NCBI GenBank assembly: GCA_000092065.1 | Contig: CP000581.1 | Reading direction: 5' to 3' (one strand) | DNA from: Ostreococcus lucimarinus | Taxonomy: Eukaryota | Length of the DNA stretch: 64,000 nt | Part shown: in pieces, positions 5,383 to 37,235 of the stretch | Layout: each line of letters begins with the position of its first letter | Position numbering within the stretch: the stretch's first letter is position 1 | The notes under the pieces: generated by a model | Database searches by the model: none | Told to the model about the DNA's origin: nothing | Seen by the model: only the letters and a program-made list of their open reading frames with translations | Position numbers and translations under genes: made by a program

Positions 5383-8300
5383 ATGCGGCGCGCGACGCCG
5401 CGCGCGCGCGAGCGTCGAGCGGCGCGCGTCGAGCGAGACGCGACGTCGAGCGACGACGACGACGACGACGACGCGCCGCGAGTGGACGATTTGTTGGTGC
5501 CGTCGTCGAGCGACGACGAAGACGAAGACGAAGGCGACGACGACGGCGGCGAGACGACGCGCGAGGCGACGCGCGACGTCGGAACGATGCCGCTGTCGCT
5601 GTCGCGATCGATCGGGGACGCGAGCGACGCGGCGGTGCGAGTGCTCGTGCGACGAGTGTCGAGACGCGCGGAGGCGTCGGCGGCGGACGAAGACGACGAG
5701 GACGACGCGAGCGCGGACGACGCGAACGAGGACGAGAGCGAAGAGGATGGTTTAGCGATCGCGGCGATGCGCGAGGCGAGGTTGCTCGCCGGAGAGCGAG
5801 GGAAGAGCGAGGTGGGGACGTCGACGGCGGACGACGCGCGAGACGAGGCGAGACGAGCGCTTCGCGCGCTGCGAGCTCGAACGGAAAAGAATAGGACGGT
5901 GGGGACGGCGGCGAGCGCGGGTGGGGTGGTAGATTTAGTGAATGTGGAGAGAGTGACGAACGCTATGATGGATACCGTCGACGCGGGGAGGGCGATGTGT
6001 TGCGCGCTGGGTCCCGGAGAACGCGTCGCCGTGGGAACGGAGGGCGGTTTTATTTTTCTCGAACGCGGCGTGAACGATGAGCGGACGGTTTCGTGCCTGA
6101 AATCGGCGAATACTTTTGCTGGAATTTCAGCCACGCCCGGGGTGACGAGTTTGTGCTTCGATGAAAGGGGTGAGTGGCTCTTGGTGGGACACGACGACGG
6201 CGGTCTCACGCTGTGGGATATCAAGCGCACGCCGACGATTTTGAAAACAATCGTCGGCGCGCATCGAACGCCCGTGATAGCGCTCGTAATGCTTTCAAAA
6301 GTGGAGTCAAACGGTGTTGTTGACGTGATATCGTCCGAGGAGGGTGGCCTCGTCATTCATCACACGCTTTCGCCTCTCGGAATGGGTGTCGTTCGAGTCA
6401 AATCGGCGTCGCTCGGCGAGCGGACGTTCGTGATAGCGGCGCACGCGCTGCCTCGAGTCGGCTCGGTGAGTGTATCAGATATTAACGCCCATGATAATGG
6501 TATCATCAGTCCTACGTACGGTGAAACGCTGAGCGCAGCGAAGAATATTGCAGACGCCGCAGGCGTTGCGGCGTTGTGCACGATGAACGCCGTGCTCATC
6601 ATGCGACTCAATCCACGAGCTGAGGTCATCGCAAAGATCGTTCGGCCGCCAAACATCGCGGCTACCGTGCTACCTGTGATGTGTTGGAGCCCGAGGTGGG
6701 CGGATGAAGTCACTACGCATGACAACGTAGAAGAATGCAATCTTGTCGTGGTATGGGGCGCGAGCGTGTACGTGCTCTCCGTCGACGTTGAATCGATCAA
6801 GCGATCGCCTGGAGAAAATGAACGAACTAAACGCGCCGCAAATACATCGCGTATCCTGAATTCGTGGAGCATCGATCCAGAAGGCGTCGTTGCGAGTGCG
6901 ATGGCGACGGCTTGGCTGTCGCAAGACTTGATTTGTGTCCTTAGTAGCCGAAACAAGCTATTTGTTTACACGTCTCATGGGCAGCTCATAGAACGTGTTG
7001 CGACGAGCGAGCCTCCGATTGCTCGTGAAATTGTACAAGCCACCGCGAGCCATGACGCTGTTTTCGAGCGTTTGCCATATTGGCATGGATCTGTCGCCGT
7101 GCGCGGCGTTCATTTCGCTATGCTATCACCTTCGAGATTACGACGCGGCAAATTTTTCGGTTGGTTCGAGCGAATGCAAGCAAAGAAGGCGGAAGGCAAC
7201 TGGGTTGGTACTTTGAACACGCTTATTGAAGTCGCATCGGATGAGCTGCCGTTGTGGCCGAGCTTGTCGAAAAAGTATGCAGATCCGGAGACTACCCGGG
7301 AAAGGGCGGTGCAAGCGTTTGTCGACGTAGTCCCACAGTTCCTTGATGAATCTTTGAACAAACGTGGTATCGACTCTGACGATGCTGCGTATTTCGAACT
7401 AATAACAAGTGTCGTTTTCGGTCTGTTGCTTGCGTTTAACGCACTGAATCAAGTGTATGCGCCGGTGGTATTCGGTGCCTTCCTAAACTCAAAATGCAAA
7501 GCGGCGTTTTTGAAAGGCATGGTGCCCCATATCTTATCGGACAAGTTGCGTTCGTTACCTGCAGAAGTGATGCAAGCGCTCGTGGAGCACTATGCTGCGC
7601 TTGATGCGGCAAATGTGATTGAACAGTGCGTTCTGCATATGGATGTAGAATCGCTTGATTTGAATCAAGTCGCTCGACTCTGCAAACATCATGGCATGTA
7701 CAGCGCGCTCGCGCACGTGTTCACGAGAGCTTTAAATGATTTCATCACACCGGTCGAAGCCATGTTTCAAGCCTCGCTGGAGCCCAAGTTTGGTGATAAA
7801 GCTCGCGTTCGACAGGTCTTGCTGTTTATTTTCAAGACTATTCAAGGCGAACAGTTTCCAACAAACGGTTGTAGATTGTCGAGCGAAATCGTTAGTCAGT
7901 TTCGAATGGAGGTGATGAAATTTCTGTTTGAGCCAGTCGATCTTAATGTGTTTACAATGAGCACGCATGATTCCGAGTCAAGTTTGAGTACCACGTGGAA
8001 CGCAGCGATGGCGCTCGCCGTACGAGAAGACGATTCATCATGTCCACCATTGCGTCTTTTGTATCTTCTTCTTGCCGAACCCAAAGCCTCGACTGTTGTG
8101 CTGACGGAAATTTTGAAAGACTGGGACGCAAGTGAGAGCGAAATACTCGCCATAGATGGCCTTCCAACCGATCGCATGGGATCTCAGGTTATTGTTGAAG
8201 CCGTGGTTTTCGCCGCCGGTGCGTGTGGTCCCGTAAATTCAGCTCCAACTCGTTCAAGACTTCTCACGTTTGCCGCAAGCATCGTCGGTACCGGCCGCGC

Positions 8301-9678
8301 CACAGTGACGCAGCAAGTTGAACGGGAGCTCTTGGAAACTTTGGCGCTCGCGAAGACGAAACATGACGTCATAGAAAGAGAGAAGGCGATGGTATCCATC
8401 ATCGGACGGCGCATAGACGAAGATATTACGTTGAATGACGAGTGTCAAATCCTCAATCTCGCGCGAGAAGCACATTTTGCTCAAGCCGAAGCCGTGATAT
8501 ACATCGCATCTGGTGATCATATCAACGCTTTGAAGGCGCTCGCCGGTGATGAGCACCGGAGAAACGCTGCTGTACATTATGTAGACGTGTGCCTTGGTAA
8601 ATCAGGTCCAGGCATCGTGCATGCAGAGCAAATGAACGCTGGACCAGCGGTGGCACGAGCGCATCCACTCGACACCGAGAGCGCCAAGGTCTTTCAAAAC
8701 GAGCTCCTTGCGATCATGCCCGTCGTCGCCGCTAAATCCGCTGATGTATGCGCTCGTATTGCAATCGCGTACTTCCCACACGCACAAGCTGAAGTTCTGA
8801 ACGCACTATCATCGGAGCCTGTCTTGCAGTTTCAATACCTGCGACAAGTTCTCGAAGCCGTGCACGAAGTTAAAGACGGCGTCGGCAGCCCTCACGACAT
8901 GAGTCTCGTGGACTTGGTGTCGGCGACAAAATCCGTCGTAACGACGGAAATGGCTGAGTTGTACTTTCGACTCATGTGTCAATTCGAACCACAAGATGTG
9001 TTGAAGTACTTAAAAAGTGAAGACGTGAAGAGTTTAGACGAAGCTCGGTGCCTTGAATACTGCCGAGAGTTCAACGTCATGGATGCTACGGCCTACTTGC
9101 TCGAGGCTGCGGGTAACTACAACGAAGCGCTCAGTATTCATCTATGCAACTACTCCACTGGTATTCGCGCGATGGCGCAGCTCTTCACGACGAGTGGGGC
9201 AGAGTGGACAAAGACTGCGCCCGCGGAGAGTTTGATGAAGGGATTCGTCATCGAGACAAACGAAGCTTTACATGTAGCCGTCGGGATGTGTAGACGCGTC
9301 TCGAGCGAAGTATCAAATAGTGAAGAAATGTGGTGGTCTTGCCTCGATAGTGTGTTCCGTTCGTTGTTAGAGCTCACGGATGGCGCTTACAAGAGAGTGC
9401 GCGATGTTCTTGACGAACACTTGGAAGATGTTTTACGAGTGATGCTCGGACGTGTAGATAACGCGCATCTTTTGGAGATGATTATCAGCCGCTACGGCGG
9501 TAGAGATATCTCCGAACTTAGAAAATTACTCACACGCGTTTTCGGAAATTGCGCACTCGAGAGAGAGTTCTTAAAATCAGAGGGATCTAGCGTTAAGCAA
9601 GAGGCAGATAAAAAAGTTCTCGAGGATTTCCAAATTCGTCGCCGCGCTCAACGAGGGACGCGGCGCACGGTTCGATAG
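5383..9678 (+). CDS. VPS8: Vps8-like CORVET subunit (N-terminal WD40/beta-propeller plus Vps8-type alpha-solenoid); no C-terminal RING
   Basis: WD40-like LWDIKRTP...HRTPVIALV occurs near the N-terminus. The central block LNQVARLCKHHGMYSALAHVFTRALNDFITPVEAMF resembles the Vps8 family core (LCREHGLYDA...NDYVTP). Start set at the first in-frame ATG (5383) after the divergent transporter start at 5283. The listed ORF start at 4717 is a GC-rich read-through. Confidence 0.55.
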   Translation: MRRATPRARERRAARVERDATSSDDDDDDDAPRVDDLLVPSSSDDEDEDEGDDDGGETTREATRDVGTMPLSLSRSIGDASDAAVRVLVRRVSRRAEASAADEDDEDDASADDANEDESEEDGLAIAAMREARLLAGERGKSEVGTSTADDARDEARRALRALRARTEKNRTVGTAASAGGVVDLVNVERVTNAMMDTVDAGRAMCCALGPGERVAVGTEGGFIFLERGVNDERTVSCLKSANTFAGISATPGVTSLCFDERGEWLLVGHDDGGLTLWDIKRTPTILKTIVGAHRTPVIALVMLSKVESNGVVDVISSEEGGLVIHHTLSPLGMGVVRVKSASLGERTFVIAAHALPRVGSVSVSDINAHDNGIISPTYGETLSAAKNIADAAGVAALCTMNAVLIMRLNPRAEVIAKIVRPPNIAATVLPVMCWSPRWADEVTTHDNVEECNLVVVWGASVYVLSVDVESIKRSPGENERTKRAANTSRILNSWSIDPEGVVASAMATAWLSQDLICVLSSRNKLFVYTSHGQLIERVATSEPPIAREIVQATASHDAVFERLPYWHGSVAVRGVHFAMLSPSRLRRGKFFGWFERMQAKKAEGNWVGTLNTLIEVASDELPLWPSLSKKYADPETTRERAVQAFVDVVPQFLDESLNKRGIDSDDAAYFELITSVVFGLLLAFNALNQVYAPVVFGAFLNSKCKAAFLKGMVPHILSDKLRSLPAEVMQALVEHYAALDAANVIEQCVLHMDVESLDLNQVARLCKHHGMYSALAHVFTRALNDFITPVEAMFQASLEPKFGDKARVRQVLLFIFKTIQGEQFPTNGCRLSSEIVSQFRMEVMKFLFEPVDLNVFTMSTHDSESSLSTTWNAAMALAVREDDSSCPPLRLLYLLLAEPKASTVVLTEILKDWDASESEILAIDGLPTDRMGSQVIVEAVVFAAGACGPVNSAPTRSRLLTFAASIVGTGRATVTQQVERELLETLALAKTKHDVIEREKAMVSIIGRRIDEDITLNDECQILNLAREAHFAQAEAVIYIASGDHINALKALAGDEHRRNAAVHYVDVCLGKSGPGIVHAEQMNAGPAVARAHPLDTESAKVFQNELLAIMPVVAAKSADVCARIAIAYFPHAQAEVLNALSSEPVLQFQYLRQVLEAVHEVKDGVGSPHDMSLVDLVSATKSVVTTEMAELYFRLMCQFEPQDVLKYLKSEDVKSLDEARCLEYCREFNVMDATAYLLEAAGNYNEALSIHLCNYSTGIRAMAQLFTTSGAEWTKTAPAESLMKGFVIETNEALHVAVGMCRRVSSEVSNSEEMWWSCLDSVFRSLLELTDGAYKRVRDVLDEHLEDVLRVMLGRVDNAHLLEMIISRYGGRDISELRKLLTRVFGNCALEREFLKSEGSSVKQEADKKVLEDFQIRRRAQRGTRRTVR

Positions 9679-14186: not shown

Positions 14187-15557
14187 ATGCTTTCGACGAC
14201 CATCACCACCCCGAGCGCTTTCGTGAAGCCGCAAGCGCCGCGAACGCGCGTCAAGGCGCGCGCCGACAGCACCATGGCCCCGCCCACGACGCGCGTGCCG
14301 CCGAGAAACCCCGAAGGTGCGCGACGGCGCGATCGATGCGCGCCGACGCGATGTCGTGGTTTATCCAGTGCGATGGGTGACGATGACGACGCGTGTGACG
14401 GCGTGCGATGCGTGAACGACGCGATGGGGATGAGAAAGGATGTGAAATGATATCGATCGCCGCGAAACGCGTCGACGCGGGCGAACGCGATGACTGACGA
14501 GTGTGGATGACGATTGATTGCTCCAGGCGCGCCGACGGTGGTGCCGCAAGATTTGCCGAGCCGACCGCGACGCAACCGCCGCTCGCCGACGGTGCGAAAG
14601 GCGTTCCGCGAGACGATTCTCACGCCGGATAACTTCATTTACCCGATTTTCGTGCACGAGGGCGATGAGAACATTCCCATCGGTTCTATGCCGGGACAAG
14701 ACCGCCTGAGCTTCAAGAATGGCATGATCAAGCAAGTGCGCGAGGCGCGCGCGGCCGGCGTGAACCAAGTGGTCGTCTTCCCGAAGACCCCGGATAACTT
14801 GAAGACGGCTTGCGGGAAGGAGGCGTTCAATCCGAACGGCTTAGCCCAACGCTCGATCTCGTTGTTGAAGGATACGTTCCCCGATTTGGAAGTGTACACC
14901 GACGTCGCGCTCGATCCGTACAACACTATGGGCCACGACGGCATGGTGCGCTCCGACGGCGTCGTCATGAACGACGAAACGGTGTACTATTTGTGCCAAC
15001 AAGCCGTGTCCCAAGCGCGCGCGGGTGCTGATGTTATTTCTCCGTCCGATATGATGGATGGTCGCGTCGGTGCCATTCGCCAAGCGCTCGACGACGAAGG
15101 TTTCACCAACGTCGCCATCATGAGTTACACCGCCAAGTACAACAGCGCGTACTACGGTCCGTTCCGTGATGCCTTGGCGTCGGCGCCGCGTCCGGGTAGT
15201 GAAGACTGGAAGATTCCGAAGGACAAGGCTGAGTACCAAATGGACCCGGCCAACTACCGTGAGTGCTTGCGCGAAGCTGCTCTCGATGAACAAGAGGGCG
15301 CGGACATCATGATGGTCAAGCCGGCGGGCGCCTACTTAGACATCATCCGCGCGCTTAGAGACAGCACCACGCTCCCAATTTCCGCGTACCAAGTGTCTGG
15401 CGAATACTCCATGTTGAAGGCTGCCGCCGCGGCGGGTTACCTTAACGAACGCGATGCGGTCTTGGAATCCTTGATCGCCATCAAGCGCGCCGGAGCCGAC
15501 TTGACGTTAACGTACTATGCCATCGATGCCGCCAAGTGGATCCAAGAAGGCAACTAA
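14187..15557 (+). CDS. HEMB: Delta-aminolevulinic acid dehydratase (porphobilinogen synthase), Mg-type, with a transit peptide encoded on a separate 5' exon: join(14187..14316,14527..15557)
   Basis: Exon 2 is unmistakable ALAD: PRRNRRSPTVRKAFRETILTPDNFIYPIFVHEGDE..., DVALDPYNTMGHDG in place of the Cys-rich Zn site (so plant/plastid Mg-type), and the active-site Lys region MVKPAGAYLDII. Exon 1 reads MLSTTITTPSAFVKPQAPRTRVKARADSTMAPPTTRVPPRNPE, which is Ser/Thr/Arg-rich and transit-peptide-like. Donor G|GTGCGC at 14317; acceptor TGATTGATTGCTCCAG| ending at 14526. The join is in frame and gives ...NPE-G-APTVVPQDLPSRPRRNR, as in plant ALADs. Confidence 0.8.
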
Positions 15558-15795
15558 GTTGAACGCGAGTAGGACATACATTTTTAATATCGATGATTAC
15601 GCAATGATTTACGAACGAGCGCCGACGAAGGAGGCAAAACAGGGCGAATGCGCATGAGGTCGGCGAAGCTTCTGACTTTTCACTACACCGCTGATGAAAT
15701 CTAACTCAAACCTCGAGACGCTCCAGCGCTAGACACCGCTCTCGACGATCTAGGGTCGATCATATTCGATCGAATTCTCCACTCCACGCGACCAC

Positions 15796-16549
15796 TTAGT
15801 AGAAGTAGCCGAGCACCTTGCCACCAACCTTCTTGCGACGGGCCTCCTCGTGGTCCATGATGCCCGACGACGTGGTGAGCACGATGACACCAAACAAACG
15901 AGAGGGCAAAAGTCGACCAACCCAGTCCTCAAGGTCGTGGTGGGACAAATCATAACGCGGGCTACGAGTTTAAAACCATTCATCGTCAGTCTCCGAGTCT
16001 TAATCGACGTTTAAAGAAGACGCGCTTCTCGACGAGCGTTCGCGCAGACCCTAAAACACACGCACCTGATGACGCCGCACTTGTTGATACGTCCGTTAAG
16101 CTCAACGACGATCTTTCCCGCTCTGTGATCATCAATGAACTCGAATTCGTTGATGTAGCCTATTCGTTGTAAACCATTCCGTCGTCAGTCTCCACATTCA
16201 TCCTGTGATGCGCGCGCCGCTTTCAGGATCGTTCGCGCGCGTCCCGCTCGCGTTCCCCTCTCTTCACACGTACCGTGCTTTTGCATCACTTGCAAGAACT
16301 TGATCACCACCTTGGAAACCGGGCGCACGAGCACCTGACGCTTCCCACGCTTTTCCGCGTTGTACATCGACTCTGCAGAGCGCGCGAACACGATCGATCG
16401 CGAGGTTAGTCACAGACCCTAAAACACCACAGCGCGAGGACGCGATTCGGCGCCGTCGCGACACGCGCGACGTCGCGACGCGTCATAACGCGCGTGCGAA
16501 CGATGATAGACGTACTGAGAGTGTCATTCAAGACGCTGATTCGGACCAT
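15796..16549 (-). CDS. RPS15A: 40S ribosomal protein S15a (uS8), 4 exons: complement(join(15796..15961,16066..16159,16274..16372,16516..16549))
   Basis: Not in the ORF track as one unit. The spliced translation is [130 protein letters not shown] (130 aa). It is colinear with human RPS15A (130 aa) at about 70% identity. Donors: A|GTACGT, G|GTACGT, AG|GTGCGT. Acceptors: TCTGCAG|, CGAATAG|, CTCGTAG|. Exon lengths 34+99+94+166 = 393 nt, and all phases are consistent. Confidence 0.9.
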
Positions 16550-16679
16550 GGCGCTTGTCTCTTGACCGCACGCGTCGTCTAAAGGCGGATGCGACTGGCC
16601 GCGCGAGGGCTTTCGACTTCGTGGTCCGTGTGGCAAGACCGACATTAGGGCTTTCAGCGCTTTCGAGGCCGTCGGGCGT

Positions 16680-16805
16680 CTGAAGGAGTCTGCTCGTGAT
16701 ACGGACGACGACGATGGTCATCTGAAGGAGTCTACTCGTGATACGGACGACGACGATGGTCATCTGAAGGAGTCTACTTGTAATACATACATACGATGAA
16801 GATCG
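16680..16805. repeat. 42-bp tandem repeat, about 2.7 copies, upstream of RPS15A
   Basis: tctgaaggagtctgctcgtgatacggacgacgacgatggtca is followed by a near-identical copy (g to a) and then a degenerate third copy. It lies about 130-250 bp 5' of the RPS15A ATG on the minus strand, immediately 3' of the cyclophilin gene. Confidence 0.75.
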
Positions 16806-17894
16806 TCATCTAAAGGATTCTAGGACGCCGGCGCGGACGATTTTTGCCTCGCCCGTGGGCTCGCCGTCGGAAGAGGCCAACTTGTTGATCGCCCAAGCGT
16901 GCTCCATGCCGTCGACGACTTCGCCAAAGATGACGTACGAGCCATCTAAATGCGGCGCTGGGGCCATGACGATACTAAAGTGCCCTGTGTTGGTGTTTGG
17001 TCCGGCGTTGGCGACGCTTAGCAAACCAGGCCGGTCGTGTTTGAGTCGCAAGCCGCCGGGATCGTCGTCGAACGCTTTTCCCGGATTCACAGCACTTCCC
17101 GAGGCGGTGTGCGACCCTGTCTGGTCAATGAATCGGTCGAGAATTCTATAAAACTTCGAACCGACCCATGTATACTCTTCCGAAGGTTCGCCCACGCACA
17201 TTCGTCGGAAATTTTCCGCCGCGAGCGGGCTCGTGTCGGCGTACAATACAAATTCGATGCGCTCCGCGTCAGCGCCGTCGATGGAGACGTCGAGGTACAC
17301 GCGATGATTCCCTTTGGCGTGGCGTCTTTTAGTCTTCGCTCTTTCTTCTGCGTTGACTTCTTCCTCCGCTTTTTCCGCTTCTTCCGATGAAAACAACGCC
17401 CCGCTCGTCCATCGAGAGTCACCGCCTCGTCGTTCCGCGGCAAACAGTGCCCGCGCCGCGTTCTTCGCGTCGTACTTCAACCAACACTCCCCGCGCTTTC
17501 TATCACCTCCGCACCCCCCTTCGTCGCCGCACCAGACCCATACGTTACATTTTCTCGCGCTCTCTTCGCACGCTCGGCAGCACGCCTCGGCGCTCGACGT
17601 CTTGAAATCGCTGCCCCAGCGCACGACGCCGCCGTCGAGCTCAACGCGAGCCCCGACGTCCGCACCGCACGTTCCGGTCATCGATGATCGTCGTGAATCG
17701 ATCGCGCGCACGACATCGACGTCATCGACGCCATTTACGTCGCTCACGAACGCGCGCGAGTGCGACGTGATTGGATTGTTCACGATGACGTAAAACGCGA
17801 GCGCAACGGCGGCGGCCACGGAGTAACGCACCGTACGCAGAAGCGCTCGAGCGTCGACATTTCGTCTGTACTGCCCGCCACGCGCGAGAGCCAT
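16806..17894 (-). CDS. Membrane-anchored cyclophilin-type peptidyl-prolyl isomerase with an N-terminal PAN/Apple-like Cys-rich domain
   Basis: N-terminal signal anchor (YSVAAAVALAFYVIVNN). PAN-like Cys pattern FKTSSAEACCRACEESARKCNVWVWCGD...GECWLKY. C-terminal cyclophilin domain VYLDVSIDGADAERIEFVLYADTSPLAAENFRRMC...FYRILDRFIDQTG...GHFSIVMAPAPHLDGSYVIFGEVVDGMEHAWAI. Confidence 0.75.
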   Translation of the reverse strand: MALARGGQYRRNVDARALLRTVRYSVAAAVALAFYVIVNNPITSHSRAFVSDVNGVDDVDVVRAIDSRRSSMTGTCGADVGARVELDGGVVRWGSDFKTSSAEACCRACEESARKCNVWVWCGDEGGCGGDRKRGECWLKYDAKNAARALFAAERRGGDSRWTSGALFSSEEAEKAEEEVNAEERAKTKRRHAKGNHRVYLDVSIDGADAERIEFVLYADTSPLAAENFRRMCVGEPSEEYTWVGSKFYRILDRFIDQTGSHTASGSAVNPGKAFDDDPGGLRLKHDRPGLLSVANAGPNTNTGHFSIVMAPAPHLDGSYVIFGEVVDGMEHAWAINKLASSDGEPTGEAKIVRAGVLESFR

Positions 17895-25610: not shown

Positions 25611-26984
25611 CTACAACATAGGAATATACGCAGGCAAAGCTTCAGTCCCGGAGTAATCGGGACTATAATCATCGTCTGATTTAGGCAAAGTTCGTTTATG
25701 CTCGTGAAGGAGCTTCATAATGCGCTCTTTAAGCTCATCGATTCCTCGACCTTCGTCGGCACTCGTCGCGGTCGCGTTTGGAATTTGCGCCATCGCGCGT
25801 TCAGCCTCCTTAACGTCCTCTTCGCTCCATAACTCTTGCGTATCCGGGTCTGTCTCACCTCCTAAAACCGGTACTAGTGCCGACTTGGAGAAGACGTCGA
25901 TCCACGGTCGACGCTCGGCGAATTGTTTGTAGAGCTCTTCTCTGAGCTGCAACTGGTCGTCGATGGACGTGCCCGATAGCCCGGTTAAATCGGTGACGAA
26001 AATCACGCACGTCGGCAAGTGCTCCAACGTCGCGATGGTGAGCATTTCAATTTTATTTCGATCGGCCTCCGATCGATTAATCAAGCCCGGGGTGTCCGTG
26101 ACCACGTGTCGCTCGTCGTCGACGAAAAAGTGCCCCATCTTGATGCCCTTCGTCGTGAACGGGTAGTTACACACTTCCGGCAATCCACTAGACAGCACGC
26201 GCACCAACGAGCTCTTCCCCACGTTCGGTGCACCGACGAGCGCGACTGTGGGCGTCTCGAGCTCCGCCACCGGAAGCTTCCGGAGCAACTTGGCGATGGA
26301 TTTCAAATCGTCCACGCACCTCGCGTACTTTCTGTAATACGCCTCCATCTCCGCGAACCCCTTCTCTCGCATCTCTTCCGCCTCTTTCAGCGCCGTCGTC
26401 TTCGTGACTTGCGACGCGTACCCTTTACCTATCCCAAGCATCCCCTTCCGCATCGAATCCACCGCCGCGAGCGTCGTTCTATACTTTTTATCGCTCAGCG
26501 TCAGCTCCAACAGCGCCCGCTCAAACGGGTGCAACCGCTCCGGCGGCGGAAACCCCTTCACGTACTCCTTCAACGGTTTACACACCCCCGTCGTCAGCGC
26601 GTCGAGTTGTTTCGCGCTCTTATTCCTCTCCCTCGCCGCATCCTTCAATCCCCGCGTCGGCGTCACCCGTCCCGCTCGTTTCACCGCGCTCGCGATCAAT
26701 TGCTCCGCGGGCGACACGTTCGGCAACCGCCCGAACGCTCCCGGCCGGTGCGCTCGCCTCGTCGTCGCCGCCACCGTTTCGTCCGTTCGCGCGTCCGCGT
26801 CTTCGTCCTCGCGTCCGCGCTCGCGCGGTTCGTCGCGCGCGTCCCTCGTCGACGTTCCCGCGTCGTCGCGCGCGTCGCCGCCGCCACCGCGCGCGCGCGT
26901 CGTCGTCGTCGTCGTCGCGCGTCGCGCTCGCGTCGTCCACGGTCGTCGCGACAGCGCGCCGGCGATCGCGCGCGCCGTCGCCAT
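25611..26984 (-). CDS. NOG1-family GTPase, short organelle-type (archaeal/plastid NOG1-like) with an N-terminal extension
   Basis: NOG1 N-domain followed by a G-domain: LVGAPNVGKSSLV (G1), NYPFTTKG (G2), DTPGLINR (G3), plus the NOG1-type EDRNKIEMLTIATLEHL. There is no long NOGCT tail; total 457 aa. The N-terminal 90 aa are R/T-rich and transit-like. It resembles plant plastid NOG1-like GTPases; that comparison is from recall, not an alignment. Confidence 0.65.
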   Translation of the reverse strand: MATARAIAGALSRRPWTTRARRATTTTTTRARGGGGDARDDAGTSTRDARDEPRERGREDEDADARTDETVAATTRRAHRPGAFGRLPNVSPAEQLIASAVKRAGRVTPTRGLKDAARERNKSAKQLDALTTGVCKPLKEYVKGFPPPERLHPFERALLELTLSDKKYRTTLAAVDSMRKGMLGIGKGYASQVTKTTALKEAEEMREKGFAEMEAYYRKYARCVDDLKSIAKLLRKLPVAELETPTVALVGAPNVGKSSLVRVLSSGLPEVCNYPFTTKGIKMGHFFVDDERHVVTDTPGLINRSEADRNKIEMLTIATLEHLPTCVIFVTDLTGLSGTSIDDQLQLREELYKQFAERRPWIDVFSKSALVPVLGGETDPDTQELWSEEDVKEAERAMAQIPNATATSADEGRGIDELKERIMKLLHEHKRTLPKSDDDYSPDYSGTEALPAYIPML

Positions 26985-27075: not shown

Positions 27076-27095
27076 CCTAAACCCTAAACCCTAGG
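27076..27095. promoter_or_regulatory. Two tandem telo-box / interstitial telomere-like repeats (CCTAAACCCTAAACCCTAGG)
   Basis: Seen directly. They lie in the 314-bp divergent promoter between the NOG1-like GTPase (start 26984, minus) and the PP2C (start 27299, plus). The AAACCCTAA telo-box is an established plant cis-element of translation and ribosome-biogenesis genes. Confidence 0.6.
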
Positions 27096-29432: not shown

Positions 29433-29591
29433 CGGCCAAGGCCTCGACGAGGATCTTATCGTTCGACGTGAGCTTGCTCGACGCCTTGATGACGGACGTC
29501 GTCGGCGTCGGCGTCGACATCGCGAGAAGAGCGTGGAGAAGTGCGGCGCGGCGCGACGCGACGGGCGACGCGGAGGAAGTCGACTCGTGGA

Positions 29592-29766
29592 ATATTATAT
29601 TGAAAAGCTTACTTGAGGAGGAGTTCGGCGCATTGCACGGCGTTTAAGGCGGCGCCCTTCTTGATTTGGTCACCACACACGAACAAATCCAAGCCCTTGT
29701 TGTTGGGCTGGGAGATGTCTTGACGGATGCGACCGACGTAGACGTCGTCGTTATCCGTGGCGTCGA
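29592..29766. repeat. Repeat A: a 175-bp, 100% identical duplicate of the ASADH 3' coding end plus its downstream 32 bp (original at 36001..36175)
   Basis: Compared base by base: atattatattgaaaagcttacttgaggaggagttcggcgcattgcacggcgtttaaggcggcgcccttcttgatttggtcacc...ccgtggcgtcgag is identical at both places. The minus-strand ORF 29609..29839 ends with the same 47 aa as ASADH ([51 protein letters not shown]). Confidence 0.9.
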
Positions 29767-29791
29767 GACACGCCGTAACGCGTCTGCGCGC

Positions 29792-30027
29792 GATCGTCTC
29801 TCTCGTCAGTCTCCCGCGTCGCGTCGTCCTCGCGCGCACGCACCGGCACCTCGCGACGACTCTCGCGTCGGTCGTCGACCGTCAACGCGCCGAGACGCGC
29901 GCGCGCGCCCACCGTCTCGCGCGAGGACGACGACGGTGAAGACGACGCATCGTCTCGCGACGCGTCGGCTCGCGACGCGTCGGCTCGCGACGAGCGCGCC
30001 TCCACGCGCGCGCGAGGGCGCGCGTCC
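29792..30027. repeat. Repeat B copy 1 (about 235 bp; second copy at 34715..34949, about 95% identity, same orientation)
   Basis: atcgtctctctcgtcagtctcccgcgtcgcgtcgtc...gaggacgacgacggtgaagacgacgcatcgtctcgcgacgc...gagggcgcgcgtcc is present on both flanks of the peroxidase-PAN gene, with a few substitutions and one 15-nt unit variation. Confidence 0.85.
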
Positions 30028-30271
30028 ACGAGCTTGTCGCGCCGGGACGCCCGGCGCGCATGCCCCCAGCGCTTGTGCGTGAGACGCCCGCGCGCGTCAT
30101 CAATCAGTTCGCAGCATGGGGAATCCCCATGCCCGAAGAGCGACGCGACGCGGGCGACGAACACTGACGCGCGCGACCAAGACTCGTGCCCGGGTGGGCA
30201 CCTGCCGTTTTTTGTTTTTTTGTTTTTTGTCTATCTACTGTAAAGAGAATGTTAAATATGTAACATCGTGT

Positions 30272-30419: not shown

Positions 30420-33400
30420 ATGGACGAATCGACGCCGTTGATCGGGCGGCGACGGGAAGGGAGACGCGGCGCGCGCGGCGCGCTCGTCGTCGGCGCGCTC
30501 GCGTGCGCGTGCGGAACGCTCGTGGCGTTGGCGAATTGCCCGCACCTGGTGTCGACACTCTCACGGGCGATTGGTGTTGGAGACGCGGACGGCGCGGGTG
30601 CGCGCGGGGTGAACGCGGTCTTCGCGCGCCTCGGTGCGGTGTGGGGACGCGATGATTCTGATTACGTGTACACGTCGCTCGAACGTGATTTACTGCGCCC
30701 TCACGAAGACGACGATGAAATCGAAGACGAAATCGACGAAATTGACGCCGACGCGAAGGACGGAAAGGTTGCCGAACACACTTCGACAGACCAACTGCAC
30801 GGTCGAGGAAACGAAGGCTTGGCAAAGGTCGCAACTCTGGGCGAGCCCGCACTTCCGACCGATTTGCCGCCGTCACGCGCGTTGGCGACGCTCGACGAGA
30901 TTGAAGCTGTTTTACTGGGCAACTGGCGAAAGTGGACGCGCTTGGACGTCGTGCGCGGACGCGCTGAACTGGAAACCGTGCGAGATAAACTCGCTGCTCT
31001 CGTTGGTGATGACGTGAATGAAACAACTGTCGCCAACTCTGCCGCAGAGGTGACAAACGAGACGTCGTTTATTTCTTGCAAGGCTGAACAACTCGTACGT
31101 GAAATCCTGAGTGAGTACGGCGGCGCACCCAAACTTCTACTCCCAAAATTGTTGCGCTTCATTTTCCACGACGCGGTTGACGAGAACAACTTATTAATCC
31201 AAAAGGATGGAGGCTATGTACCGTTTAGGGCACCAACTGGCTCGATATACGGCGGTTTGGACCTTTGCCTTTACTCTCCCCTGACGCATGGAACGTCTGG
31301 GAAACCAGACCCTGGGCATAACAGAAATGTTCGAATGAACCGCGAGGTTATCAAATTGTGTGACGCTGTCTGTAAAGATTTGAATACTGGTTTATGTGAA
31401 CTGCAGAATGATAAACCTAAACGGTGCTATACGGACATGTTAGCGTTTAGTTCCATAATCGTTCTGGAGAAGCACTCAAAGCTTAGTGCCCCATCTTCAA
31501 TGGTTTGGGGAAGGCGAGGCGGTGAGTGTGGCAACAGCATCGTTACACCATTTACCAAAAGCAGGGAGAAGCTTGAATCCTACGTTGGAAAACCTGCGCT
31601 GAACTTTGCGCCGGCGCTTCATGCCATGGACGATCCCGGCACCTTCTCGAGAGTCTTTGCAAAACTTGGATTTACGCCTTCAGAGCACGTCGCGTTGATG
31701 GGAGCTCACAGTGTGGGTAAAATTTCACCATGCGCGAGTGGACTCAACGGTATCGAAAAAGGTAACTTTTGCCCGATGAAGAAGCGATATGATCCACCCA
31801 TCGAGATAGGGAATGAATCCCCACAGTGCCAGCCACAAAAACACGTTCAGGGCAACTGTTGGAAACCCTCTGGACCGAAGTCTTATGCCACTCCGTATTA
31901 CTACTTCTTTCGTGGTGGGAGAACAGGGTACAAGACCGGCTTCGCCGACGGTGGGGTTTGGGATCACACGCCTGATTCGCTTGACAATCAGTATTACAAG
32001 TTGATGTACGACGAAGACTATGGGGGACGCACTAAGTGTTGCGGGAAAAAGAAGAATGGCGGTTGCCATCGGGGTGGGCAACCAGTCGACAGGGAAACTG
32101 GGAGAAAACTCCCTTTTTCCTCATTATGCAACATAAATTGGTGCCGCTCAGACCGCAAAGGTAGGACACACATGAAGTCTACAAAAGCTTGGGTCGAACC
32201 CAGACATTCGCTCTTAAAATTGCCCTACTTTCGCGGAACCATCGTGAAAATGATAAGACTTGCCGGTGATTGGGCTCTTCTCGGGAACAATGAAACACAA
32301 TCGATTCTGAAGCGTTATGCAGAAGATGAAAACGAATTCCATTCCAATTTTGCGGTGGCCTGGGATAAGGTGTTACGGAAGGGGTACTTCCTTGACGAGC
32401 TGAAAACGTGTTCGAACGTGTCAGGACCGAAAGATGCGCAACTTCTTACTCGCCTAAGGGAGTACCAAGCTGCACTGTCGGCCAAACGCGCCAAACGCGT
32501 GGCCAAAAATGCACGACGCGCCGGGGTCGAAGCCGAAAGTTCTGACCAAACATCGAATCTTGGAGATCAAAGTTCACACAACAAACTTGGACAACAAAGT
32601 TCAGCACAAGAAGATGCAACCACAGATAAAACACTGCAAGTTGCAACGGCAACCATGGATGATGCGAAGTACGACGACGGGCTTGACACTGCAACGAACG
32701 CATCGGATCTCGAGCAAGTTGTACCAAAGTCAATTTCAACGACCATTCAACATTGTGATAAGTTCAATGTGCTTGGTCTCGTCAAACACATCCGGTCAGA
32801 GATACAGAAGCTCCCTCGAGATACTACACCTCTTGCGATAGGGCAAGAGCTCACTGCGGCGAGAGACGTAGTCATGGGACAAAACGTACAGATGAGCGAG
32901 CCGACGCCTGCGCCTGCGCCCACACCTACGCCGACGCCTGCGCCTGCGCCTGCGCCTGCGCCTGCGCCTGCGCCTGCGCCCACACCCGCACCTTCGCCAG
33001 GAGTGGAGCAAAGCGACGAGTCCAGCAACGAAGATGGAGGTGACGCGAAAATCTACAGCTTGGAGCACGCAGGCGCACGGTGCGTAGGGCTGCCTCGTGC
33101 CAAGCGAGTGAAGCGAACGCGCAGTGTGGAGGAGTGTGCTGAGTTGGTGAAAAAACGTGGGCACCTCCACTTTGCCTTCCTCCGCAACACCGTGTGCTTG
33201 GAGCAGCCAAAACCGTGGAGCAAATGTCGTCGCATTCGCAAGGGCCGATTTGATCTTTACAAGATCAAAGCAGAGCCTGCGCCTCCTGCGCCTCCGCCTG
33301 CGCCTCCTGCGCCTCCTACGCCGTCTACGTGGTCGTCTACGTGGTCGTCTACACCTTCCACTTACAGTTACAGTGCAGCGACATGCAAGCGCGATCGTGG

Positions 33401-34619
33401 CAAGTTCGTTGATGGGAAATGCTGGCATATGGCTACGACTGACACATCTTGTGAAGAGACATGTGCTGACAAAAATCTTCAATATGATGAGGGCACGCAC
33501 CTGGGCTCGCCGAAGAACCCTGAGACCTGGGACAAGTGTGTGGCTGTCGCCCAGATGTTTAAAAAGCAGGCAAGGACGAATGGGCCAGCGATCGGCGGGG
33601 GTGGTGGCTGTGGCTGTTCAGTCTTTAAGATTCCTGTTTACGGTACGAATGATGCAGTTCGCCTGAGTGGCGCCAATACTACGAGCCCCGAGTGTTGGAA
33701 GATGGGCCCAATCCAAGCACGTCTCTGCGCATGCAAACCAGCATCAGCTGTTGGCGCAAGTTGCACCTCTTCCTCAAGCTGCTTGAACGCTTATTGTAAG
33801 TCAGGCGTTTGCACGAGTTTTTTGGCCCAGAACAGTGCATGCACCGAGCACGCTTCGTGCGTGACAGGCTATTGCTCACCAACGGAACGTAAATGCACGA
33901 CGGTGTCATGGAAGTCACAAAAAGGCGCGTATGCCAAAAAGTACTATAACGCTGGTAAAAAGAAATTCAGGGTTATGCCAAAACAGAAGAACGTACCTGA
34001 TTGGGAGGCGATGACGACGTTTCCAAAGGGTTTTTGTATCGGAAATGACAGCGCCGGTTGCTTGATAGCACGCGGTGTCAACCGCCAGAAGACGATTCAA
34101 AAAGCCAAACAGCGTTGTGCGTCGTCTGAGGAATGCGTGGCTGTTTGGTGTTGCGCAACAGGATGTCCAGCCACGACGTGTCATGCAGTCAAGACTAGAA
34201 CTCCAAATTACGCGGCGAACGATTGCCCGCTCTTTCCTGGAAGCTTCCGCGAGACCAAATACCCGGCTACGTTCTATACTAAAGACACGGAGGGCGCTCA
34301 AGTACACGAGTCACCGCGAAACATCGTGACGGAAGTGGACATTGCTGCGAGTGCCGATGAAGGGGAAAACATGTACAGTCGGATAAAAGGAGGGAAAAGA
34401 AGGAAGGTAGACGCAAAGCAATGCCCCTTACAAAAATTGAAAGCGCACACCTTGGACGAGTGCGCTGAGATGGTGAGGGAACACGGAAGCCTTCACTTTG
34501 CCTTCGGACATAAAAGGTGCTTTTTGGCCAAACAACCGTGGAGCGAATGCGAGACGAGCCATGGCAAGTATGATCTTTTTCAAATCGACGAACACGCACG
34601 CGACGACGATGAAGATTGA
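30420..34619 (+). CDS. Giant secreted/membrane-anchored plant-type (class II/III-like) heme peroxidase fused to Pro-Ala/Pro-Thr mucin-like linkers, Cys-rich modules and two PAN/Apple-like domains (1399 aa)
   Basis: N-terminal hydrophobic anchor (ALVVGALACACGTLVALANC). Peroxidase motifs: LLRFIFHDAV (distal His, R..FHD), ALMGAHSVG (proximal His), DSLDNQYYKLM (FDNxYY). (PA)n and PxxP linkers are encoded by (CCTGCG)n at 32904..32990 and again at 33275..33350. Two approximately 60-aa repeats, ...SVEECAELVKKRGHLHFAFLRNTVCLEQ... and ...TLDECAEMVREHGSLHFAFGHKRCFLAKQ..., have PAN-like Cys spacing. Additional Cys-rich (EGF/GCC-like) segments are present. Confidence 0.7.
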   Translation: MDESTPLIGRRREGRRGARGALVVGALACACGTLVALANCPHLVSTLSRAIGVGDADGAGARGVNAVFARLGAVWGRDDSDYVYTSLERDLLRPHEDDDEIEDEIDEIDADAKDGKVAEHTSTDQLHGRGNEGLAKVATLGEPALPTDLPPSRALATLDEIEAVLLGNWRKWTRLDVVRGRAELETVRDKLAALVGDDVNETTVANSAAEVTNETSFISCKAEQLVREILSEYGGAPKLLLPKLLRFIFHDAVDENNLLIQKDGGYVPFRAPTGSIYGGLDLCLYSPLTHGTSGKPDPGHNRNVRMNREVIKLCDAVCKDLNTGLCELQNDKPKRCYTDMLAFSSIIVLEKHSKLSAPSSMVWGRRGGECGNSIVTPFTKSREKLESYVGKPALNFAPALHAMDDPGTFSRVFAKLGFTPSEHVALMGAHSVGKISPCASGLNGIEKGNFCPMKKRYDPPIEIGNESPQCQPQKHVQGNCWKPSGPKSYATPYYYFFRGGRTGYKTGFADGGVWDHTPDSLDNQYYKLMYDEDYGGRTKCCGKKKNGGCHRGGQPVDRETGRKLPFSSLCNINWCRSDRKGRTHMKSTKAWVEPRHSLLKLPYFRGTIVKMIRLAGDWALLGNNETQSILKRYAEDENEFHSNFAVAWDKVLRKGYFLDELKTCSNVSGPKDAQLLTRLREYQAALSAKRAKRVAKNARRAGVEAESSDQTSNLGDQSSHNKLGQQSSAQEDATTDKTLQVATATMDDAKYDDGLDTATNASDLEQVVPKSISTTIQHCDKFNVLGLVKHIRSEIQKLPRDTTPLAIGQELTAARDVVMGQNVQMSEPTPAPAPTPTPTPAPAPAPAPAPAPAPTPAPSPGVEQSDESSNEDGGDAKIYSLEHAGARCVGLPRAKRVKRTRSVEECAELVKKRGHLHFAFLRNTVCLEQPKPWSKCRRIRKGRFDLYKIKAEPAPPAPPPAPPAPPTPSTWSSTWSSTPSTYSYSAATCKRDRGKFVDGKCWHMATTDTSCEETCADKNLQYDEGTHLGSPKNPETWDKCVAVAQMFKKQARTNGPAIGGGGGCGCSVFKIPVYGTNDAVRLSGANTTSPECWKMGPIQARLCACKPASAVGASCTSSSSCLNAYCKSGVCTSFLAQNSACTEHASCVTGYCSPTERKCTTVSWKSQKGAYAKKYYNAGKKKFRVMPKQKNVPDWEAMTTFPKGFCIGNDSAGCLIARGVNRQKTIQKAKQRCASSEECVAVWCCATGCPATTCHAVKTRTPNYAANDCPLFPGSFRETKYPATFYTKDTEGAQVHESPRNIVTEVDIAASADEGENMYSRIKGGKRRKVDAKQCPLQKLKAHTLDECAEMVREHGSLHFAFGHKRCFLAKQPWSECETSHGKYDLFQIDEHARDDDED

Positions 34620-34714: not shown

Positions 34715-34949
34715 ATCGTCTCTCTCGTCAGTCTCCCGCGTCGCGTCGTCATCGCGCGCACGCACCGGCACCTCGCGACGACTCTCGCGTCGGTCGTCGA
34801 ACGTCAACACGCCGAGACACGTGCGCGCGCCCACCGTCTCGCGCGAGGACGACGACGGTGAAGACGACGCATCGTCTCGCGACGCATCGTCTCGCGACGC
34901 GTCGGCTCGCGACGAGCGCTCCTCCACGCGCGCGCGAGGGCGCGCGTCC
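34715..34949. repeat. Repeat B copy 2
   Basis: See 29792..30027. Confidence 0.85.
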
Positions 34950-35254
34950 GCGCGTGGCGCGACCGGCGCGCGGGCGCGACCGACGGCGCGAGGCGCTGGC
35001 TATGTGTACGCACTCATAGTAGTGGTCACGATGACGTATCGTGCGCGTTCTTCACCCATCTATTTGCATTCCTCGACATCGCACTCGTAGTAGTGGTCAC
35101 GACGGCGGGAAAACCACCGTTCCTCCGCGGCTCACTGTTTGCGCATAGAGAAAAATTCCGGCGTGGTCGCCCGCGTCAGGAGGGACTCTTGGAGGTGTGT
35201 GACTCGTCGCTACATCTTAAACCTCGTGCGGAGATAGATCCCTTGCGGAGACGA

Positions 35255-35836: not shown

Positions 35837-36017
35837 TTCCAATCATCATCCACTCGCGCCTCGGCCGACGCCATCGGCCGCGCGACGCCTCTGCGTTCGT
35901 CAACGACGACACAGCACGCACGACAATTACAATAAGTTTAATATGAATGACACGCACTTACGCCGACGAGGGGAGACGATCGACGCGCGCGCGCGCGCGA
36001 ATATTATATTGAAAAGC

Positions 36018-37235
36018 TTACTTGAGGAGGAGTTCGGCGCATTGCACGGCGTTTAAGGCGGCGCCCTTCTTGATTTGGTCACCACACACGAACAAATCCA
36101 AGCCCTTGTTGTTGGGCTGGGAGATGTCTTGACGGATGCGACCGACGTAGACGTCGTCGTTATCCGTGGCGTCGAGCGGGGTGGGGAAACGGTTGGCGGC
36201 GCGATCGTCGATGATGGAAACGCCCGCGGCGGAGGACAAGATTTCTTTCGCCTTGACTTCATCGAGCGGGTTCTTCAACGTCAAGTTGATGGATTCCGCG
36301 TGCGCACGCATCACCGGCACCCGAATGCACGTGGCGGTGATGTTGACGTCTTTGAAGTCCCAAATCTTTCTCGTCTCCTTGACCATCTTCATCTCTTCCT
36401 CGTTGTAACCATTCTCCGTCATCGGGGCGTTGTGAGAGAACAAGTTGAACGCATACTGCCACTGGAAGATTTCCATCGTCTTGCACTCACCGTCGTTCAC
36501 CACTTCTCTCGTTTGTTGCTCCAACTCCTTCATCGCGAGCGCGCCGGCGCCGCTCGCCGCTTGGTACGTCGACACGACGATACGTTCGACGCCCACGGCG
36601 CGGTGAATCGGCGTCACCGCCATGAGCGCGATGATGGTGGAGCAGTTCGGGTTCGCGATGATCCCAGCCTTACCACCGAGCTTCAAGTGCGCCATGGCTT
36701 CCGGATTCACCTCCGGAATCACCAACGGCACCCCATCCGTCATGCGAAACGCGCTCGAGTTATCCACCACGAAGCACCCCTTCTCCACCGCCACCGGTCC
36801 AAACTTTTTCGAGATCGACCCCCCCGCGGAGAACAACGCGATATCTTGCCCATCGAACGAGCTCTCCGTCAGTTCCTCCACGACGTACGTCTCGCCGTCG
36901 AAATCCACCTTCGACCCCGCGCTTCGCGCGCTCGCCAGCATCTTCATCTCGCTATACGGAAAGTCCCTCTCCTTGAGCACGCGCAGGAACTCCTGTCCGA
37001 CCGCGCCCGTGATTCCCGCGATGACCACCTTCGGTCCGTCCGCCGTTCGCTTCGCCTCGACGCGCACCGCCCCTCGCGTCCCGCGCGCGCCCCGCGCGAT
37101 CCTTTTCGTCGTCGCTTTCAGCGCGTTCGCGTTCGCGATTCGCGCTCTCGCGCTCGTCGTCGCGCGCATCGTCGTCGTCCGCTCGTCCCTCGTCCCTCGT
37201 CGGCGCTCGTCGCGGCGCGTCGGCGTGTGTCGCAC
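36018..37235 (-). CDS. ASD: Aspartate-semialdehyde dehydrogenase with an N-terminal transit-like extension
   Basis: VVIAGITGAVGQEF (Rossmann fold), GIIANPNCSTIIALMAVTPIH (active-site Cys), ...YQAASGAG... and the C-terminal [19 protein letters not shown]. The first 70 aa are R/T/A-rich. Confidence 0.85.
   Translation of the reverse strand: MRHTPTRRDERRRGTRDERTTTMRATTSARARIANANALKATTKRIARGARGTRGAVRVEAKRTADGPKVVIAGITGAVGQEFLRVLKERDFPYSEMKMLASARSAGSKVDFDGETYVVEELTESSFDGQDIALFSAGGSISKKFGPVAVEKGCFVVDNSSAFRMTDGVPLVIPEVNPEAMAHLKLGGKAGIIANPNCSTIIALMAVTPIHRAVGVERIVVSTYQAASGAGALAMKELEQQTREVVNDGECKTMEIFQWQYAFNLFSHNAPMTENGYNEEEMKMVKETRKIWDFKDVNITATCIRVPVMRAHAESINLTLKNPLDEVKAKEILSSAAGVSIIDDRAANRFPTPLDATDNDDVYVGRIRQDISQPNNKGLDLFVCGDQIKKGAALNAVQCAELLLK

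Follow-up and report, generated by a model that had tools for sequence, protein, structure and literature searches.

A conserved telo-box-like motif in introns 1 and 3 of Ostreococcus lucimarinus RPS15A as a probable intragenic regulatory element

The gene for ribosomal protein RPS15A (uS8) of the green picoalga Ostreococcus lucimarinus lies on the minus strand of a 64-kilobase (kb) stretch of chromosome 1, hereafter the window, and is interrupted by three short introns. Here we report that introns 1 and 3 share a short telo-box-like motif that is conserved among relatives of the alga. From sequence comparisons we conclude that this motif is probably an intragenic telo-box-type cis-regulatory DNA element that forms part of a ribosomal-protein regulon. 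An earlier reading of the window, made from its letters alone (the sequence-only reading), had described the motif together with a resemblance between the 3' tails of introns 2 and 3. That resemblance would be a separate matter, made up of branch consensus and conversion between introns.

The motif shared by introns 1 and 3 and its conservation

The 15-mer CAGACCCTAAAACAC occurs exactly twice in the window, at plus-strand positions 16045-16059 in intron 3 and 16413-16427 in intron 1, against a shuffle expectation of 0.09. No third copy was found in the 64 kb with 2 mismatches allowed. These are the two sites that the sequence-only reading had picked out, and both were confirmed. Inside the 15-mer lies an 11-nucleotide (nt) core, TTTTAGGGTCT(G). 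On the minus strand, the intron 1 core TTTTAGGGTCT occupies 16414-16424, 2 nt upstream of the branch site, while the intron 3 core TTTAGGGTCTG occupies 16045-16055, where it fills positions 11-21 of the intron, just behind the 5' splice site. The yeast-like branch site ascribed to intron 1, TGACTAAC, is present in the sequence at 16412-16405 (minus strand), and its ACT[A/G]AC is invariant in the alignment of intron 1 from seven Ostreococcus lineages (A1).

Both copies include the complete heptamer TTTAGGG/CCCTAAA as well as the octamer ACCCTAAA. The window has four TTTAGGG heptamers in all: the two RPS15A copies, one in coding sequence, and one in a tandem tract near a NOG1-family gene. The sequence-only reading had matched the motif to the plant telo-box; the RPS15A copies read AGACCCTA and agree with the usual plant definition, AAACCCTA, at 7/8 positions. 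The copies of Micromonas RPS15A, RPL11 and RPS14 and of Ostreococcus-like RPL11 match AAACCCTA. Evidence of the telomere repeat of this alga is confined, in the window, to the interstitial (AGGGTTT)n tract near the NOG1-family gene. This tract, TAGGGTTTAGGGTTTAGG, lies at 27076-27093 on the minus strand, ~100 nt upstream of the ATG of the NOG1-family GTPase, and may belong to the same element class as the RPS15A motif.

To collect orthologous introns without assuming the motif, we searched metagenome contigs for a degenerate form of the exon 2/intron 2 junction. The scan returned 120 loci, from which we parsed 57 distinct RPS15A intron sets representing ~24 lineages of Mamiellophyceae. Across seven Ostreococcus lineages, the sole invariant runs besides the splice signals were TTTTAGGGTCT in intron 1 (A1) and TTTAGGGTCTG in intron 3 (alignment A2), within introns whose mean column identity was 64% and 51%, respectively. 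The O. tauri orthologue, for example, carries GTTTTAGGGTCT in intron 1 and GTGCGTGTGTTTTAGGGTCTG at the start of intron 3, and its remaining intron sequence has diverged. Intron 2 held no comparable invariant block in these lineages (alignment A3), where only the splice signals and a GATC patch were kept.

That patch (16227-16230) is one of two short mid-intron patches invariant in the seven lineages, the other being TTC.T in intron 3 (16014-16018), ~27 nt downstream of the motif. In Arabidopsis ribosomal-protein promoters, a GAAGAA-type motif has been reported close to telo-boxes, and the TTC.T patch is its complement.

Beyond the genus, [CT]TAGGGT was present in an RPS15A intron of every distinct set in which the relevant intron was recovered (54/54, from the 57 parsed). 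The Ostreococcus types carry it in introns 1 and 3. The Micromonas-type lineages and three GC-rich lineages carry it in intron 1, in sense, 32-83 nt before the acceptor, and in all Bathycoccus types intron 2 holds it in antisense (ACCCTAAtgga), at a distance of 32-63 nt from the donor. The intronic motif was not found in the fungal-type RPS15A genes caught by the same junction scan. Further copies were seen in individual lineages. A Bathycoccus-related locus (L031) holds the motif as an inverted pair, TTTTAGGGAGGACCCTAAAA, at ~+37 to +60 of RPS15A intron 2, with two more TTTAGGG copies upstream, and in one Ostreococcus lineage (L069, position 2377) the RPS15A promoter adds a third copy, TGTTTAGGGTCTGCTAGGGA, oriented opposite to the gene.

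As judged from these alignments, the 11-nt core is under strong purifying selection across the genus, and the TAGGGT core is under strong purifying selection across the class Mamiellophyceae. Because the motif is fixed while its flanks diverge, its presence in two introns reflects selection and not recent copying.

The same comparison bears on a proposal that the shared blocks are introner-like, that is, left over from an intron family that spread by mobility or duplication. Micromonas, the genus in which introners were originally described, belongs to the same order as Ostreococcus, and here too two pairs of introns, in this case within one gene of a Mamiellales alga, share sequence. Introners of Micromonas and Aureococcus, however, are near-full-length intron copies in hundreds to thousands of genes at lineage-specific positions, whereas the RPS15A introns share only 11-30 nt within one gene. 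The similarity spans 15 nt between introns 1 and 3 and ~30 nt between introns 2 and 3, and the rest cannot be aligned. Both copies of the 15-mer in the window belong to RPS15A, and TTAGGGT is nearly absent elsewhere: 46 sites were counted in 173 kb from 22 Ostreococcus loci, of which 44 were RPS15A intron sites, one lay in the RPS15A promoter of L069 and one lay elsewhere. In addition, the positions of introns 1-3 are common with Micromonas and those of introns 1-2 with Bathycoccus, and the introns are therefore ancient. Given these ancient positions, the short similarity, the fixed motif amid diverging flanks and the lack of further copies, we rejected an introner-like origin, which we consider extremely improbable.

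Other ribosomal-protein genes and the level at which the motif acts

Telo-box-like motifs were also found in RPS14, RPL11 and RPL12 of these algae, in 5' introns or promoters and in either orientation. Intron 1 of RPL11 holds TTTAGGGTTT in Micromonas sp. (L129), ATTAGGGTTTT in M. pusilla (L161) and AAAACCCTA in an Ostreococcus-like locus (L156), where it is the single site in 8.5 kb. A Bathycoccus-like RPL11 (L151) has TTTAGGGTG in its promoter, ~165 nt upstream of the ATG, again as the sole site. In RPS14, the orthologous intron after ...DTFV contains AAACCCTAAAA in M. commoda, AAGCCCTAAA in M. pusilla and AAGCCCTAG in O. tauri, and RPL12 of M. pusilla has AAAACCCTA ~380 nt upstream. Taken together, RPS15A, RPS14, RPL11 and RPL12 had at least one site in 13/13 gene instances examined.

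These genes were reached by several routes. A tblastn screen with ribosomal-protein sequences yielded one further Mamiellophyceae gene, RPL11 (L086 and L129). RPS14 orthologues were obtained through cluster members; no named Ostreococcus was among the best 120 RPS14 protein matches, a look-up of the O. lucimarinus RPS14 protein (P0382) gave no match, and tblastn with RPS14 against the recovered loci matched M. pusilla only. A 'Ribosomal_L23' gene beside Bathycoccus RPS15A was left out of the survey because it looks organellar.

In 189 kb of non-redundant loci, 12 of the 22 TTAGGGT sites fell in the 9% made up of ribosomal-protein genes plus 400 nt upstream (binomial p = 8e-8), and a relaxed pattern placed 19 of 44 sites there (p = 2e-9), in a sample that is small and non-random (four genes, a handful of lineages), drawn from loci picked around ribosomal-protein genes, set against a background of mostly coding sequence, and containing RPS15A orthologues that are not mutually independent.

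Two candidate sites were discarded during the survey. TTTTAGGGTTTT in the O. tauri locus L143 is a chance occurrence within protease coding sequence, and a TTTAGGGT-like cluster at 8200-8800 of the M. commoda locus L008 is part of a large inverted-repeat element and not of a ribosomal-protein gene. The arms of this repeat, which lies between ALAD and FtsH and may be a transposon-like palindrome, end in degenerate telomere-like sequence (…AACCCTGAAAACCCAACCCCC…, with TATCTTTAGGGTY repeated). Within the window, AAAGCCCTAA at 16645-16654 (minus strand), ~100 nt upstream of the RPS15A ATG, resembles the AAGCCCTA(A/G) of the O. tauri and M. pusilla RPS14 introns; it was not conserved at the aligned position of O. 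tauri RPS15A.

We then placed the two RPS15A copies relative to the start of transcription. Transcript contigs from a sister clade start aligning at 16584-16588, which puts the inferred RPS15A start at ~16588, within the initiator-like pyrimidine element ATCCGCCTTT (16581-16590, minus strand) that is kept in O. tauri RPS15A. By this measure the intron 1 copy lies at ~+165 and the intron 3 copy at ~+535. Plant telo-boxes concentrate in 5' untranslated regions (UTRs) and the first two introns of genes for ribosomal proteins, ribosomal RNA processing and small nucleolar RNAs (snoRNAs) (PMC3022908), within -60 to +180 of the start (PMC2576244). Set against the location of the class (~-80 to +180; 5'UTR or first introns), the intron 1 copy falls inside and the intron 3 copy outside. 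With respect to orientation, the conservation data gave sense copies in Ostreococcus and Micromonas RPS15A, antisense copies in Bathycoccus types, and both among RPS14 and RPL11.

The ATCCGCCTTT sequence precedes the ATG by 30-45 nt in RPS15A of both O. lucimarinus and O. tauri (L012, ~9960) and in RPL11 of the Ostreococcus-like L156 (~3670), and looks like a pyrimidine-rich initiator (TOP/TCT-like) of ribosomal-protein genes.

We favour a double-stranded, telo-box-type DNA element because the motif is indifferent to orientation, occurs occasionally in promoters and lies just downstream of the start. In such a mechanism, a double-strand telomere-repeat-binding protein would recognize the TTAGGGT core on DNA in either orientation. 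Candidate readers are the two TRFL (TRF-like) Myb proteins listed for O. lucimarinus (XP_001421395.1 and XP_001416857.1; PMC3400083), which could bind the core. Binding would help to set high, co-ordinated and probably late-night transcription of cytosolic ribosomal-protein genes. In the same order of algae, M. commoda promoters that belong to orthologues of night-phased Arabidopsis genes were reported to have the telobox in excess (bioRxiv 10.1101/2020.03.31.018291), and the 80S ribosome genes of O. tauri peak before dawn (PMC2850359).

The motif shares with the plant telo-box, AAACCCTA(A) or TBX, a telomere-repeat-like core (TTTAGGG / TTAGGGT), a place just downstream of the start in 5'UTRs or first introns, an association with cytosolic ribosomal-protein and ribosome-biogenesis genes, and occurrence in either orientation. 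It differs in that the Ostreococcus consensus TTTTAGGGTCTG departs from AAACCCTA at one position in eight, in that one copy sits far downstream in intron 3, and in that the RPS15A locus lacks the site II/TCP partner motif. A comparable regulon exists in fungi, where telomere-binding proteins control ribosomal-protein genes (Tbf1 on TTAGGG-type boxes, Rap1 in Saccharomyces). The likeness there is a telomere-repeat-like motif and a Myb/telobox protein co-ordinating ribosomal-protein genes, the algal protein being a candidate, and the algal RPS14 variant AAGCCCTA(A) is similar to one half of the fungal box, AGCCCTAA. The fungal sites, however, are promoter elements and not intronic, and the lineages are unrelated.

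Several observations weigh against the DNA-element reading, as does the make-up of the enrichment sample. No site II partner (TGGGCY or RGCCCA) was found in 15700-16810. The TRB proteins, which are the known binders of plant telo-boxes, are reported to have arisen only in streptophytes (PMC10167121). With no site II motif and TRB reportedly confined to streptophytes, the algal reader protein must differ from the plant one. The flanking TCT(G) is conserved beyond telomere identity around a core that is not canonical, and the TAGGGTTTAGGGTTTAGG tract was not conserved upstream of the NOG1-family orthologue in the Ostreococcus locus L069, the other loci being truncated.

The remaining points against a DNA element are those that would favour a role in RNA, in which UUUUAGGGUCUG, read in sense in the pre-mRNA, tunes the splicing of introns 1 and 3. 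The motif could then be a site for a splicing or RNA-stability regulator, with an hnRNP-A/B-type UAGGG binder or uS8 autoregulation as candidates, or it could pair with AGACU of the branch region. It is in sense in 7/7 Ostreococcus lineages and abuts core splicing signals: in intron 1 the branch site follows within 2-5 nt, and in intron 3 the motif stands close behind the 5' splice site. Its GGUCU could base-pair with [A/G]GACU in the branch region, a 5-bp helix being predicted in intron 1, and telomere identity leaves the TCT(G) flank unexplained. UAGGG sequences of the hnRNP A1 type are intronic splicing silencers, and in Ostreococcus a UAGGG core likewise stands on the pre-mRNA beside splice signals. 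Intron-based autoregulation is, moreover, common among ribosomal-protein genes, including yeast RPS22B, the uS8 orthologue.

Against such a role, the motif of every Bathycoccus-type lineage lies on the other strand and in another intron, and in RPS14 and the Ostreococcus-like RPL11 the sense strand reads AAACCCTA; these antisense copies, like the C-strand ones of RPS14 and RPL11, speak against an RNA function common to all. Promoter copies occur in L151, RPL12 and L069, and the Micromonas motif does not stand beside a recognizable branch site. An hnRNP A1-type silencer is likewise opposed by the copies that lie antisense or in promoters in related genes and lineages. When the alignments of introns 1 and 3 were folded with RNAalifold, weak helices resulted (-5.2 and -2.9 kcal/mol), and these carried no informative covariation, as the predicted pairs never vary. 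Since the motif is indifferent to orientation, a sequence-specific RNA role cannot explain it, and we regard an RNA-level element as unlikely. The motif may nevertheless be under dual DNA and RNA constraint in Ostreococcus.

A second RNA-based explanation is that the RPS15A introns host a snoRNA or another structured non-coding RNA. Ribosomal-protein introns are often snoRNA hosts, and the yeast uS8 gene RPS22B combines intron-based regulation with snR44 in its intron. Among the fungal-type RPS15A genes recovered by the same scan, at least one (L055) hosts snR44 in intron 2, where this H/ACA snoRNA was matched with 35.1 bits (Rfam RF01262), a situation like that of yeast RPS22B. Ostreococcus RPS15A resembles RPS22B in belonging to the same uS8/RPS15A family and in holding conserved non-coding information in its introns. 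In yeast, however, this information consists of RNA structures or a snoRNA, whereas the algal 11-nt motif is unstructured and tolerates strand inversion. We found snR44 in fungal-type loci only, and an Rfam scan of 15000-17500 gave no match at E <= 1. The algal introns measure just 104-143 nt, with 11 nt conserved and no covarying structure. With neither an Rfam match nor a conserved structure, we rejected the structured-RNA explanation, to which we attach next to no probability.

L055 (91-224), L041, L043, L048, L064, L073, L111, L133 and L137 are RPS15A genes, mostly from soil metagenomes, that have intron 2 at the same position and a conserved CCGGGTTTAACTGG block there, and are probably fungal.

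The 3' tails of introns 2 and 3

The sequence-only reading had also described the last 35 nt of introns 2 and 3 as near-identical. The tail of intron 2, GGAGACTGACGACGGAATGGTTTACAACGAATAG, runs from 16193 to 16160 on the minus strand with its ACTGAC branch at 16189-16184, and that of intron 3, GGAGACTGACGATGAATGGTTTTAAACTCGTAG, runs from 15994 to 15962 with its ACTGAC branch at 15990-15985. The tails read as quoted and resemble each other beyond chance, yet 'near-identical' was generous, as they agree exactly over two blocks, of 12 nt and 9 nt, and elsewhere at scattered positions. Their alignment score was 17, compared to a cross-species null with a mean of 2.7 and a standard deviation of 3.9, and 3/20000 branch-anchored shuffles reached this score.

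Part of this similarity is generic. RACTGACGA is the branch region of most candidate introns of the window (ALAD, CPSF100, CRAL-TRIO and others, with ALAD backed by cross-species transcripts), and the first 9-12 nt of the block shared by introns 2 and 3 are the extended branch consensus of the species (RACTGACG, then a T-run). All Ostreococcus tails have a common layout of ACTGACG, a 5-9 nt spacer, a T-run and YAG. The idea that the shared segment is only this consensus thus applies to its first 9-12 nt, and the remainder is specific to O. lucimarinus, since it was absent from the other six Ostreococcus lineages.

The O. lucimarinus intron 3 tail scored 13-16 against the intron 3 tails of its sister clade (clade X), whereas for the intron 2 tail the scores were 12 and 10 against clade X intron 3 and 4 against its clade X orthologues. 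Most simply, this pattern would be explained if, in O. lucimarinus alone and after its split from the sister clade, ~30 nt at the end of intron 2 were replaced by intron 3 sequence through intragenic conversion. Since the intron 3 tail is orthologously conserved and the intron 2 tail is closer to clade X intron 3, the transfer would have run from intron 3 to intron 2, with the intron 3 tail as putative donor. The shared branch consensus may have seeded the exchange. No function is apparent for the putatively converted tail.

It is also conceivable, with an appreciable though lesser probability, that the tails resemble each other through generic branch-to-acceptor architecture and chance, without conversion. 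The wide occurrence of RACTGACGA and the common layout of the tails fit this explanation, and two further observations count against conversion. GGAGACTGAC also occurs in unrelated introns, namely in an O. tauri RPS14 intron and in a duplicated segment at 29803 and 34725, and the truly specific part of the tails is reduced to GAATGGTTT, found in RPS15A only. Conversely, the score of 17 compares with 1-8 for introns 2 and 3 within each of the other six Ostreococcus lineages and at most 7 for cross pairs outside O. lucimarinus, few anchored shuffles matched it, and the intron 2 tail is more like foreign intron 3 tails than its own orthologues. The proposal of a conserved intronic regulatory element can be kept for the motif of introns 1 and 3, which is conserved, rare elsewhere and echoed in RPS14, RPL11 and RPL12, and not for the 3' block of introns 2 and 3.

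The duplicated segment that holds GGAGACTGAC lies in a segmental duplication, in which 29590-30030 corresponds to 35999-36176 (a 178-nt piece with 100% identity) and 34715-34952 (a 238-nt piece with 96%). The C-terminal end of the aspartate-semialdehyde dehydrogenase gene is among the copied parts, an intron-like GGAGACTGACGA segment is also included, and the duplication brackets a 1399-residue peroxidase-domain open reading frame (30420-34619) with an unusual AT skew and internal GCCTGC repeats.

The RPS15A gene in its neighbourhood and in the green lineage

The window is gene-dense, with ~57% G+C. Its assignment to O. lucimarinus chromosome 1 agrees with a 529-residue open reading frame at 59599-61188 that exactly matches XP_001415494.1 (O. 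lucimarinus CCE9901), and with synteny to O. tauri chromosome 1 around RPS15A. The conserved gene order is NOG1-family GTPase, TPS/TPP, SMC-like, GT2, cyclophilin, RPS15A, ALAD, Vps26, DHH, Vps8 and amino-acid transporter. The NOG1-family GTPase gene (25611-26984) encodes a long, transit-peptide-like N-terminal extension, and a 42-nt unit, GTAGACTCCTTCAGATGACCATCGTCGTCGTCCGTATCACGA, is present in ~2.4 tandem copies at ~16677-16777, between the cyclophilin stop codon and the RPS15A promoter.

From ATG to stop, RPS15A spans 16549-15796 on the minus strand, a model that draws on translation and transcript contigs. Its four exons (16549-16516, 16372-16274, 16159-16066 and 15961-15796) are separated by intron 1 (16515-16373; 143 nt, phase 1), intron 2 (16273-16160; 114 nt) and intron 3 (16065-15962; 104 nt). 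The spliced product is a 130-residue uS8 identical to the O. tauri/O. lucimarinus RPS15A protein P0123, and four spliced RNA-seq contigs (L015-L018) align at 100% identity to the window with breaks exactly at the modelled junctions. The position of intron 3 is common with Micromonas, and Bathycoccus lacks this intron.

Intron 1 occupies a position common to Ostreococcus, Micromonas and Bathycoccus with a 2-nt offset. In Ostreococcus (16515/16516 junction) it follows nt 34 in phase 1, encoding K-S, and in Micromonas and Bathycoccus (L007, L008 and L019, ~5036) it follows nt 36 in phase 0, encoding K-A. The offset, with Ostreococcus further upstream, is an apparent small intron slide.

As footprinted by these alignments, the RPS15A element is a very cleanly delimited member of the known telo-box class, in a lineage for which published views differ: one paper stated that telo-box control of ribosomal-protein genes is specific to land plants and claimed the class to be absent (PMC3212954), and another saw the telobox statistically in promoters (bioRxiv 10.1101/2020.03.31.018291). 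What our comparison adds is a candidate element, 11 nt long and with precise limits, for the control of a ribosomal-protein gene in Ostreococcus, a model alga that can be transformed and that is the smallest free-living eukaryote. Because the class offers natural variants of orientation and position, the question of DNA versus RNA action is directly testable. The putative transfer from intron 3 to intron 2 would, in turn, show in a small and clean case how introns of one gene can exchange sequence.

If the pattern is general, the link between telo-boxes and ribosomal-protein genes would reach from land plants to prasinophyte green algae without the known plant readers. We tentatively suggest, as a possibility that is still doubtful, that a link between a telomere-like motif and ribosomal-protein genes is ancestral to all green plants and predates TRB and TCP, that such elements were pushed inside genes in compact picoalgal genomes, and that introns of highly expressed genes, among them RPS15A, RPS14 and RPL11, were retained because the main transcriptional controls of these genes lie in them. 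An excess of introns has been reported in highly expressed Ostreococcus genes (PMC2367439), and, if true, intron housing of control elements would explain it. This would offer a concrete reason for compact genomes to keep introns in their most highly expressed genes.

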